Virus record (IMG/VR): IMGVR_UViG_2684622619_000014
From: a virus
Lineage: Duplodnaviria; Heunggongvirae; Uroviricota; Caudoviricetes
DNA: 20,707 nucleotides
Strand: one strand, 5' to 3'
Position numbers: made by a program. Positions 12,001 to 15,000 of this stretch are shown here, in pieces (position 1 is the stretch's first letter; every line of letters begins with the position of its first letter).

Positions 12001-15000
12001 CGCATTTGTTGAGAAGGATCGGAGGCCAGCGGCCAGCTTTTATGAAAAACATCCGTCAGCAGGACATCCCAGTCTTCCGGATAGCTGGCCGGATCAATTC
12101 GCTGGCTCTCACCGTCGCTGTCACCGCGCAATGACTGCGTGATGTTGTAACGATCAATAATCCAGCGTTCGCCACGGCTGCCATAGCCCGTTACCTGAAC
12201 CACAAAACGGCGATGACGTCCCGCCTGCACATCCACTGTCGCCACAAGGAAATTAACGCCATCCGGCACACTGCTGGAAGGAACTGGCTCTGCCCGCTGC
12301 TCAAGCAGTTCACTTTTTCGTTGCTCCATGCTGGCGCGGGGAAGATAAGGTAATCCCCAGTCGGTATTGATAACCGTCTTGAGTGTTTCTTCACTTCCGG
12401 TTGTCTCGTATTCCTGTTCTGCAGTAAGCAGTTTGTAAACGAGTTGCGAGAGTGTCTGGTAAGCAGCTGCCGGACCCTCCATCCAGAATGACGCAATACG
12501 TGAGCGTCGGGGATCACCATAACGACTACCATCCGCATTGATGGATTCACCATCCCGCAACCAGACCCCACGTCCGTTCAGCTCACGTTTTTGTTCAGGC
12601 ATAATCCGTCCTGAACAGGAAGGACACTGAATATAAGCCGCCTCACTTGCCAGCACGGGAGCGGCAATATCACGGAAACCAGCAACCACATCGCCGCAGG
12701 GCTGAAAATACTCACCACAGTGTGGACAGGGCCAGTACCAGCGACGGCGATCGCCACGGTTATAGAGCGACAGTATCCCCGTGGTTGGTGGAGCCTCATG
12801 CGGTGAAGTCCGTCGCCATTTCACATCCTTCACATCCCTGCCGGGGGAACTCTCCACCAGCGTCATACCACTGGACATAAATGTGGTGGTACGTTTTGAG
12901 GCAAGAGAGAAGGCATCCCCCTCGCCATCAATATCTTCCGGAAAACGGTCATAATCCGTCAGCGCCACGCATTTATAATCTGATGAGGACATGATATTGA
13001 CTGACGGCCAGCCGATTTTCAGGTAGTTGCCAGCAAGGAATGTTCTGTCATAAACGTTGTTGTCATTTTTGTTCGGACTCAGGCGACTGACCACTTCCGG
13101 GCTGACGCGAAACGTTCTGGCGAGTCGTTTTTTGGAGTGTTCGCGGGCTTTTTCCTCCGTCATCTGAATGATCAGCATATCCGCAGGATCGCAAATCACG
13201 TTGTAAATCACCCAGCCGTCAATCAGGCCGATAGTCTTGCCGGTTCGTGCCGGGCCAACAAATATCACTGCGTCGTATTCACGCGAGGCCAGGCAGTTCA
13301 TCGGCTCAATAACATACGGTGCCACCAGCGGATCCCACGGGACTGAGTTCCCGGCCCCCATGGGCACCCGCATATACTGAGCAACGGCATCAGCAACCCG
13401 CATTCGTCTCGGTGCGCGAAGGATATAACCTGAATCGGTTCGTGCTGCCTTTGCGGTTTCCTGATTCAGCATTACTCCTCCTGCTGTAATTCCTCCTCAT
13501 CATCCGCACCTGCTTCGGTCACCCGCAGGGCTATCTGATCGCGCAGATCATCAATAATGGACTGAACACGGCTCACAGCGGCAGGCTGCAGACCACAGTC
13601 ACGTTCCAGAATATCCGGTAATGTCTCCAGCACCTGCACGACCGCTTTTGCCCAGATGGCAAACTCCCGTCTGACATCACTGGCCGGAATGAGTTGTGCC
13701 GTTTCCTGTTCGAACTTAAGACGCTCACGTTCAGACTGATACCAGGCTTTGCGTTCATGTGGATCCATTTCGCCCTCAGCAACCGGCGGTGGTAACCCCA
13801 TAAATTCAGTCAGAATATCGGTCAACCGGTATAGCTTGAGTTTGTCATGTCCACCAGCGGGACGAATGTTTTTCAGTCTTGCCACGACAGTCTGGCGGTG
13901 CAGACCAGATAAAGCCGCCAGTTGATTAATATTCAGCACCAGGTTTTTCAACTCATGATCCATATTTCCTCCGGAGAGCTTTAAACATGCATCGTGCGAA
14001 CAACTTTAAGAAAACGCGTTCGATGTCGAACAAAAAACACTCAATTCGACATACAAAAAACAAATAACCATTAATAATCAATAAGATGCAAAGATGATGG
14101 TGGCCGATAAAAATGCAAAAACTAGCCTTTTTCCGCGACGCTCCCGCCCCGTGGCAGGCCACCCCACCGGGAGGAGCCGTCAGCCTGAAAGCCATGACGA
14201 ACGTCTGATACAGCCCTTGCATGAATGGCATCGGGATAATCCAGAAAGGAATAGCATCGACCCACAAGAATCTGTGTGAGTGTCCTGTTTCTTCCACCCC
14301 CGCACAGGACTGGCGAGCATGAGGGACAAACCCGCGAATCATTAGCGCGGTAAAAACCCGGTGTGCATCGTTTTTGATTATTCCCGCACACTCGCGCAGA
14401 AGGAGTTCCCCGTCGGGCTACGGTCATGGTTAATGCGGGAATACAGCGACGATACAGCGCATGATGTGTCAGGCTTGAATACCTTTATCCGTTAAAAGGG
14501 ATATCAGTTAAGTTATCCCGTGTAGGGTATAAGCCATTATCAAAGCCACTCTGTAGGGAGTGGCTTTTGTAATGGCAATAAAAAAGCCCCGCGAATGCGA
14601 GGCTAAATCCAGGTATTTTTAATGACTGGCTCTTATCTCAACGCAGCCCCTTACCGCGCGCCAGATGCTCAATATCAAGCATCAGCAATGAGATGTTTAA
14701 CCATGATTCACTCCAGAAGTGAGCACCACCCTGTCTACAGAGCCAGATGTGAAGGATGATGAGTAAAATTATCGCTATCATCGAAGGCATTGCGTCCTGA
14801 TGTATTCCTGAAGCGTTCTCAGTGCTGTTTGGTCGCGGATAATTCCGTCCCGGATACCGAGAACGTTTCGTCCAGCAACTGGAGAGAGTTCGACGGTGGC
14901 ATCATTGCCCATGCCGGAGGCGCTGGAGGTTTCGTCTGAGGATGGCACAGGGCATTTTCCTTTGACGAACACCCGACCACCATTATCAAGCTTGCGCCGA

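Follow-up and report, generated by a model that had tools for sequence, protein, structure and literature searches.

Known cos sites of lambda-like phages

Lambda-like phages are defined by 12-base 5' extensions resembling those of lambda (Feiss and colleagues, PMC4669245), and Gifsy-1 was placed among the phages with a lambda-like cos by Feiss (PMC4669245). Natural variation of cosN is seen at bp 7-12, namely at positions 9 and 12 in N15 and at positions 8, 9 and 11 in Gifsy-1, and CG dinucleotides flanking both nicks are conserved among lambda-like phages (PMC4669245). The conserved part of cosN is given as the first 4 bp and 2 nt on each side in a statement of PMC9303873 that cites the Vahanian/Feiss survey. 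The cosQ box of lambda is highly conserved and required for termination of packaging, and termination needs I2 together with cosQ and cosN (PMC4669245); according to a 2015 paper, cosQ shows no apparent variation in nature. The R3 site lies at bp 50-65 in lambda and at bp 48-60 in N15 (PMC9026076). An alignment of lambda cos with putative cos sites from sibling O157 prophages was published in 2009 (PMC2669165, Fig. S8).

We analysed the IMG/VR record IMGVR_UViG_2684622619_000014 (Caudoviricetes), a stretch of 20,707 nucleotides, here called the window. It is a lambdoid prophage of Escherichia coli O157:H7: a 1.3-kb query around the site described below is 100% identical to many O157 chromosomes. 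The minus strand upstream of the terminase genes very probably carries a lambda-type cos in three parts, cosQ, cosN and cosB, belonging to a terminase with a DUF1441 small subunit (TerS) and a gpA-type large subunit (TerL).

The cosN motif and the predicted cohesive end

The pattern CGGGGCGGN6CGCGG, with at most one mismatch, has a single occurrence in the window, at positions 14133-14151 of the minus strand, whereas dinucleotide-preserving shuffles contained it 0.01 times on average. On this strand cosN and its flanks read CCACG/GGGCGGGAGCGT/CGCGGAAAAAGG, where slashes mark the predicted nicks (with a longer right flank, CCACG/GGGCGGGAGCGT/CGCGGAAAAAGGCTAG). The predicted cosN, with the conserved CG on each side, occupies 14136-14151, and the predicted 12-nt 5' end itself 14138-14149. 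By analogy with lambda, the top strand would be nicked between 14150 and 14149 and the bottom strand between 14138 and 14137.

The lambda termini were taken from NC_001416, joined, and aligned with the window. Joined lambda reads ...ACGGGTCCTTTCCGGTGATCCGACAGGTTACG/GGGCGGCGACCT/CGCGGG, and the window ...ACGGCTCCTCCCGGTGGGGTGGCCTGCCACG/GGGCGGGAGCGT/CGCGGA. The two 12-mers are identical at 8 of 12 positions, with bp 1-6 the same and mismatches at 7, 8, 9 and 11, and the CG dinucleotides beside both nick positions are kept. Since all mismatches fall within bp 7-12 and both CG flanks are retained, the window cosN follows the published natural pattern. The first G of the 12-mer (nt 1 in the numbering used below) lies 186 nt upstream of the terS ATG (13963), so that the gene starts at nt 187, compared with nt 191 for lambda Nu1. 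Counted by hand, the twofold symmetry of cosN is 8 of 16 positions in the window and 10 of 16 in lambda.

The initial annotation had pointed to a cosN-like 12-mer followed by CGCGG on the minus strand, with an end differing from lambda at several positions and at a lambda-like distance from the terminase gene. The sequence, the differences and the distance all stand; the coordinates given for the 12-mer, 14137-14148, had slipped by one base.

A 7-nt perfect inverted repeat, GGTGGCC/GGCCACC, surrounds cosN, with one copy in the box at the R3 position (14099-14105) and the other in the gap between cosQ and cosN (14157-14163); it may be due to chance. The string GGGCGGGAGCG was not found in the phage papers of the literature searched. 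A scan of IMG/VR for the motif at contig ends gave no match at the end of a locus among the matches listed, the coordinates being those of the locus and not of the contig.

Conservation of the cos core upstream of DUF1441 terminase genes

A DUF1441 protein search retrieved 80 loci from IMG/VR and 66 loci from bacterial genomes sampled at one genome per species, with 38-100% identity. Together with the window this gave 147 regions upstream of terS genes, which were scanned with a profile of the cos core. A common architecture, consisting of the cosQ box, ...CACG, the interval, CGCGG and GGCTAGTTTTT, was observed in 136 of the 147 regions, in genera ranging from Escherichia, Citrobacter, Klebsiella and Serratia to Haemophilus, Pasteurella, Mannheimia and Psychromonas. 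Counted between anchored flanks over the 85 distinct cores, the interval is 12 nt in 76, 13 nt in three and 14 nt in one. The strict form CG/GGGN9/CGCGG is present in 60 of the 85 and carries 23 different 12-mers; in the Escherichia group the 12-mer varies at bp 6, 7, 11 and 12. Thus the flanks and the spacing are kept and the interior drifts, a pattern to be expected of an enzyme that nicks beside the flanks. From the nick to the ATG, the Escherichia group has 186 nt, most other Enterobacterales have 129 nt and Pasteurellaceae have 85-123 nt. The core in some form occurs in about 2,000 of 5,426 complete E. coli genomes.

Several public phage records break at the same place. Those of cdtI (AB285204) and Tritos (OV696610) start with GGGCGGGAGCGTCGCGGAAAAAGG and end with ...CTGCCACG, that is, they were opened exactly at the predicted top-strand nick of GGGCGGGAGCGT; the Tritos paper states no method for the genome ends. 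The LLS record annotates nt 1-12, GGGCGGCGCGCT, as a single-stranded 5' cohesive site; the terS gene, whose product is 63% identical, follows 129 nt downstream. The putative 12-nt 5' end of LLS and mEp213 was inferred with M. Feiss, and the authors note that DNA ends around cos were missing from their long reads of LLS (PMC12315714). The record of Hafnia phage yong2 starts with CGCGGG and ends with its own 12-mer, GGGGCAGCGACA, which is the form that remains once a filled-in terminal duplication is trimmed. For the Cylindrospermopsis phage Cr-LKS3, 9-nt 5' cohesive ends, GGGCTCGCG, were reported as determined (PMC9303873). In its sequence, this reported overhang corresponds precisely to the interval from ...GACGCG/ to /CGCGGAAG, and GGGTCCC lies upstream.

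The proposal of a lambda-type cosN is supported by this conservation and by the public records opened at the 12-mer, and the 12-nt end GGGCGGGAGCGT agrees with the interval in most cores and with the record starts. For the window itself we infer the cohesive end, the nick positions and the binding and activity of the terminase by analogy with lambda.

Some other record ends were considered and set aside. The starts of the mEp460 and ev081 records are both arbitrary, 25 nt upstream of terS, and were rejected as termini. Ayreon, which has about 150 bp in place of the 12-mer, was rejected as a contrary case, since this is probably an assembly artefact at a coverage break. Its record (MF807953) has at 1944-2228 an open reading frame (ORF) annotated as a putative late gene regulator that spans the expected place of cosN. 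The last 24 codons of this inserted ORF encode the same amino acids as TerS residues 110-133, and scaffolding and gap filling had been used in the assembly; the insertion is probably a product of gap filling or an assembly chimera at the physical end of the genome. Two virion-derived assemblies, mEp460_4F5 and Ayreon, are anomalous exactly at cos.

The cosQ box

Alignment of the junction with lambda places a cosQ-like termination box, GGCTCCT, at 14172-14178 on the minus strand, 29 to 23 nt before the top-strand nick. The lambda box GGGTCCT, a sequence shared by all close relatives of the window cos, lies at -30 to -24 (lambda 48473-48479). The position is thus the right one, and six of seven bases match, the deviant base being the C at window position 14176; the box thus departs from the exact 7-bp cosQ. 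Because the box stands at the lambda cosQ position, the likeness to lambda extends beyond the site as initially delimited (13986-14160), which covered the cosN and cosB region and left the third part outside.

Among the 85 distinct cores, cosQ reads GGGTCCT in 54, AGGTACT in 28 and GGGTCCC in one; one is unassigned, and one, that of the window lineage, has GGCTCCT. The changed position, the third, is G in both common forms. The exact 56-mer with GGCTCCT was found in about 310 E. coli records, in a single copy each. Among the matches listed, every record that names a serotype is O157:H7, and the matches in forward orientation are located near 0.9 Mb. In PhiR40_1, an infective sibling phage, the canonical GGGTCCT stands next to an otherwise nearly identical cos, and thus the change in the window is derived. 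By analogy with lambda, this G-to-C substitution would probably impair termination. As the prophage is also decayed, the window copy is probably a partly disabled relic, at which cutting at initiation would be possible and termination would likely be poor.

The second widespread form, AGGTACT, lies at approximately -31 to -25 from the nick, and its carriers include Pasteurellaceae prophages and Gifsy-2. As judged from these sequences, its frequency runs counter to the published impression of an invariant natural cosQ.

I2, the candidate cosB boxes and the leader

Next to cosN there is an I2-like segment, CGCGGAAAAAGGCTAGTTTTTG (nt 13-34; 14116-14137, minus strand), which is nearly invariant in the Escherichia group and of which GGCTAGTTTTT is kept across genera. 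The map of cosB was made from the 50 distinct sequences of the Escherichia group. Little or no variation is seen in these at nt 1-34, in an ATTGAT core (nt 69-74), in GTCGA..TTGA (nt 100-109), in TGTTTTTTGTTC (nt 111-122) or in the leader (nt 136-186). Two boxes, at nt 45-60 and nt 122-135, switch jointly with the subtype of the helix-turn-helix and wing of TerS.

The first of these boxes, GGCCACCATCATCTTT (nt 45-60; 14090-14105, minus strand), stands at the position of R3 in lambda and N15 and co-varies with TerS. It reads CACCATCATC in the window, where the TerS motif HRQT is combined with GGHDKLKL, CATCATCATC where HRQT is combined with GSNSKLK, and CATCACCAC where it is combined with GGHESNLK. 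It is GCAGCAGCA with NRNxVARRL or GRNTVRKRL, and GGCGGCAGCA with HRDTVKKRL (the cdtI type). Across the whole family the box follows the recognition helix and the wing of TerS. On this comparison, its part GGCCACCATCATC (14093-14105, nt 45-57) is the best candidate for the primary site of the small terminase subunit.

The box is followed by an IHF-like site, AATCAATAAGATG (nt 62-74; 14076-14088, plus strand), matching WATCAANNNNTTR at 12 of 13 positions. No variation is seen in its ATCAA core across the Escherichia group, and relatives of the mEp460 type have the perfect TATCAATATATTA in the same place. Near the position of lambda R2, the left arm of a dyad, ATGTCGAA (nt 98-105; 14045-14052, minus strand), forms a perfect 8-nt inverted repeat with the right arm TTCGACAT at 14023-14030, the arms being 14 nt apart and the dyad spanning nt 98-127; across the Escherichia group GTCGA..TTGA is conserved. 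The dyad of Gifsy-2, GTGTCGAA...TTCGACAC, has both arms changed and the symmetry kept. The right arm of the window dyad is included in the palindrome GTTCGACATCGAAC (plus strand GTTCGATGTCGAAC; nt 119-132; 14018-14031, minus strand), which is preceded by the invariant TGTTTTTTGTTC (14028-14039). The mEp460 TerS subtype has GTTCATCACTAACACC in place of the palindrome, and the palindromic form is not conserved. The palindrome may accordingly be described as the right dyad arm with a subtype-specific extension, a candidate distal site for TerS.

The palindrome GTTCGATGTCGAAC had been noticed in the initial annotation; it and its inverted partner are both present. Candidate sites for the small subunit had been sought in this and related repeats; candidate sites do lie between cosN and terS, but the best one, the box at nt 45-60, had been missed, and the palindrome is distal and specific to one subtype. 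The suggested packaging specificity distinct from that of lambda agrees with the comparative evidence, in which the boxes change with the DNA-binding domain of TerS.

Between cosB and terS there is a leader of 51 nt, TAAAGTTGTTCGCAcGATGCATGTTTAAA... (nt 136-186; 13964-14014, minus strand), found in the Escherichia group only. Its absence from most other genera accounts for the two spacing classes of 186 and 129 nt. No sigma-70-like promoter was found in the leader.

In mEp460_ev081 (LR597641, approximately 1330-1525), a tandem duplication of about 98 bp runs from GGCTAGTTTTT through the first cosB boxes and gives this record a second R3-position box and a second IHF-like site; the duplication may be genuine or may have arisen in assembly.

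The terminase proteins

The small terminase (163 aa; 13472-13963, minus strand) was assigned to DUF1441 and PHROG 141, with an N-terminal helix-turn-helix, by Pfam, PHROG and hhalign searches. DUF1441 (4.6e-44) is its sole significant Pfam match, and lambda Nu1 matches Phage_Nu1 at 2.5e-100. In PHROG, TerS belongs to phrog_141, 'terminase small subunit' (2.7e-77), with a cross-match to the Nu1 family phrog_57 (8e-9); reciprocally, lambda Nu1 cross-matches phrog_141 (5.6e-8). By hhalign, the winged helix-turn-helix regions of the two proteins, residues 9-52 of TerS and residues 2-48 of Nu1, align weakly. When TerS was compared in sequence with solved structures, all matches were at chance level, and the single-sequence AlphaFold model was too poor to use (pLDDT 53.5, below 50 at the N-terminus). 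The large terminase (700 aa; 11370-13472, minus strand) is of the gpA family, with the Pfam domains GpA_ATPase (4.4e-72) and GpA_nuclease (1.9e-85), and is 25% identical to lambda gpA over its full length (BLASTP, E 2e-19). Both terS and terL are intact ORFs in the window.

The prophage and its decay

The genes on the minus strand are ordered as a P21-type holin, lysozyme, Rz, a gap of about 800 nt, DUF1441 terS, gpA-family terL, a gpW-like gene, portal and a ClpP-capsid fusion. The place of cos after the holin, lysozyme and Rz genes and before terS and terL is a lambda-like arrangement, and the portal gene downstream of terL is of the lambda family.

In strain TR01 this prophage adjoins ybhC; cI, cro, O and P are missing, bet is truncated, and the portal is encoded in two coding sequences (CDSs). 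These features match the published description of the Sakai prophage Sp3 (PMC2669165), for which neither circularisation nor replication nor packaging was detected (PMC2669165). In the window the portal is split on the minus strand into an ORF of 374 aa (10109-11233) and one of 120 aa (9652-10014). The identical O157 prophage in RefSeq likewise has two CDSs named phage portal protein, and the relative Ayreon has a single intact gene of 1,509 nt. The split portal fits a defective Sp3-like prophage. This copy of cos lies within a decayed prophage.

Several other features of the locus were observed. At 14585-14604 (minus strand), after Rz and about 440 nt before cosN, there is a strong terminator-like hairpin with a stem of 8 pairs (6 G-C) and then TTTTTATT; in the Ayreon record a terminator is annotated in the corresponding interval downstream of Rz. 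An ORF of 101 aa runs across cosQ and cosN (14122-14427, minus strand); the PhiR40_1 record lists it as a hypothetical protein, and in that of mEp460 a shorter version is annotated. As it has no Pfam match and would be split by cleavage at cos, it is probably not a gene. On the plus strand, opposite to these genes, a gene for an LpxR lipid A deacylase (Pfam 6.8e-40; 18783-19742) stands upstream of the Q antiterminator gene (17619-18392) and is a likely moron.

Proposed mechanism and alternative explanations

By analogy with lambda, the small subunit would bind to sites downstream of cosN, primarily to GGCCACCATCATC at nt 45-57; a segment bent by IHF would come next, and then the dyad ATGTCGAA/TTCGACAT. 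The large subunit would thereby be placed to nick the strands 12 bp apart, at the CG/GGG and /CGCGG flanks, leaving the 5' overhang GGGCGGGAGCGT, and packaging would run in the direction of the terminase genes. Termination would be signalled by cosQ, cosN and I2 of the next cos.

A number of observations weigh against this interpretation or some part of it. In this copy of cos, cosQ is mutated, and the surrounding prophage has a split portal and no replication genes. The overhang varies in length within the family, being 9 nt in Cr-LKS3, apparently 14 nt in Gifsy-2 and 13 nt at a few loci. The record of mEp460_4F5 (LR595868) starts with CCACGGGGCGGGAGCG-CGG, 4 nt upstream of the predicted nick, and its 12-mer is without 3 bp (GCG) relative to that of mEp460; the starts of the cdtI and Tritos records may themselves rest on the analogy with lambda. 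The co-variation of the box with the TerS type is confounded by shared ancestry, and within the window the nt 45-60 box and the palindrome are alike in the CATC core only. The IHF pattern is matched with one mismatch and is not enriched across the window (11 occurrences found, 18.8 expected), and thus it is position and conservation that speak for the IHF-like site. Finally, TerS has no match to Pfam Phage_Nu1 (PF07471), and its hhalign alignment with Nu1 is weak (E 0.002, probability 13%). The gene had initially been called Nu1-like; it is probably only a remote relative, and the Pfam family is a different one. The sequence comparisons suggest that TerS is Nu1-like in function and probably by remote descent, not in family membership.

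The site may be a true cos by descent that is dead in this prophage, the G-to-C change in cosQ blocking termination and nothing being packaged for want of excision, replication and heads. We regard this as an evenly balanced possibility. The lineage with GGCTCCT is a single one among the distinct cores, it alters a G kept by both common forms of a box that is highly conserved and needed for termination in lambda (PMC4669245), and it is repeated in about 310 E. coli records, of serotype O157:H7 where one is named among the matches listed, whereas an infective sibling has the canonical box. The split portal, the truncated bet, the missing cI, cro, O and P, and the negative results for Sp3 (PMC2669165) point in the same direction. 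However, the effect of GGCTCCT on termination is predicted by analogy with lambda, the ORFs of terS and terL are intact, and cosN, I2 and cosB are those of an infective phage apart from one base. Moreover, initiation in lambda needs only cosN and cosB, so the terminase of this or a sibling prophage could still cut here. It is unlikely that the site is a cos nicked elsewhere than the lambda analogy predicts, with an overhang of another length or a start at CCAC. One could cite the mEp460_4F5 record, which begins with CCACGGGGCGGGAGCG and is 3 bp short, and the different intervals of Cr-LKS3 (9 nt), Gifsy-2 (14 nt) and three further cores (13 nt). On the other hand, the overhang reported for Cr-LKS3 is the interval between the conserved flanks, and the records of yong2, LLS, cdtI and Tritos all break at these flanks. 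The mEp460_4F5 record is a SPAdes contig with trimmed end repeats and nt 1 set by hand (PMC6969025), and its start is suggestive only as evidence on ends.

The palindrome GTTCGACATCGAAC could instead be the hairpin of a transcription terminator or attenuator before the terminase gene, and not a protein site. A consensus scan did find a stem of 6 pairs with a T-rich tail at 14032-14017 (minus strand). However, this hairpin is weak (-5.4 kcal/mol, z -1.2; 22 of 200 shuffles fold equally well), and no fold is obtained for its counterparts in the mEp460 and L060 subtypes (0 kcal/mol), so a terminator role seems very unlikely. Besides, late transcription has to pass through this point into the terminase genes, and the element switches with the TerS subtype. 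That the likeness to cosN is due to chance, and that the phage packages by the headful, is hardly credible in view of the 0.01 chance matches expected for the pattern, its fixed position in 136 of 147 terS upstream regions in many genera, both gpA domains in TerL, and relatives reported or annotated as 5'-cos phages. A lambda-type cos in three parts is the interpretation we retain.

Significance

The site as such is already known: GGGCGGGAGCGT has stood as the first 12 bases of the cdtI GenBank record since 2007, and it belongs to a standard lambda-type cos. What is added here is small, namely a family-wide map of cosB, a common alternative cosQ, and a lineage-specific cosQ substitution that is a small marker of prophage decay. 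The position of cos sets the true genome ends and the direction of packaging for a very common group of E. coli prophages, including the O157 prophages that exchange packaging functions. It guides annotators in opening such genomes and accounts for assembly artefacts at this spot. It also indicates which terminase could cut which prophage, and so bears on the mobilisation of virulence genes between defective prophages.

Two further suggestions are speculative, and we consider them rather doubtful. The cosQ change, fixed in one E. coli lineage, may leave cos able to start packaging and unable to end it, pushing chromosomal DNA into heads; in that case cutting here by the terminase of the prophage itself or of a sibling would lead to packaging of the neighbouring chromosomal DNA with no proper stop. 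The cosB code of the DUF1441 group may also define new specificity classes; if so, the boxes of the CATCATC type and the dyad would make up an uncharacterised code.

Comparison with known systems

The order and spacing of parts are those of lambda cos (cosQ, cosN, I2 and cosB with R3, I1, R2 and R1, served by Nu1 and gpA). The likeness includes cosQ about 30 nt upstream of the nick, the CG flanks, the 12-nt interval, and CGCGG and GCTA in I2, followed by a candidate box near the R3 position, the IHF-like site and, near nt 100, an inverted element. The window departs from lambda in the six-of-seven cosQ, the 8-of-12 cohesive end, the DUF1441 small subunit and a TerL that is 25% identical, and the repeats of the window (the CATCATC-type boxes and the TTCGACAT dyad) are unrelated in sequence to the lambda R sites.

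Phages cdtI and Tritos (prophage 3 of E. coli LF82) share with the window the start GGGCGGGAGCGTCGCGGAAAAAGGCTAGTTTTT, a cosQ box and a DUF1441 small terminase. However, their cosQ is the canonical GGGTCCT, and their TerS is 42% identical and has another N-terminal helix-turn-helix (HRDTVKKRL). Their DNA diverges from that of the window from approximately nt 35-50, the R3-position box being GGCGGCGGCA, and there is no similarity after about nt 95. Phages PhiR40_1, PhiR47_1 and PhiR55_1 (PV340560, PV340566, PV340571) were used as infective phages (bioRxiv 10.1101/2025.11.03.685801), and their TerS is 100% identical to that of the window. In PhiR40_1, cosN, I2 and cosB are the same as in the window except for one base at nt 97, whereas cosQ differs; the PhiR records are neither opened at cos nor do they annotate it.

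The lambdoid phages of the mEp213/LLS and Gifsy types have a DUF1441 terS, a gpA-type terL and a ClpP-capsid fusion, as in the window. They differ in the spacing, with 129 nt from the nick to the ATG in LLS against 186, and in their boxes, which are of the CATCATCATCATG type; in Gifsy-2, cosQ has the alternative form AGGTACT and the flanks are apparently 14 nt apart. Cr-LKS3 has a DUF1441-type terS 130 nt from its left end, a GGGTCCC box, the flanks CG/GGGC.../CGCGG and GGCAGTTTTT, and differs in the 9-nt overhang, a TerS that is 37% identical, and a cyanobacterial host.

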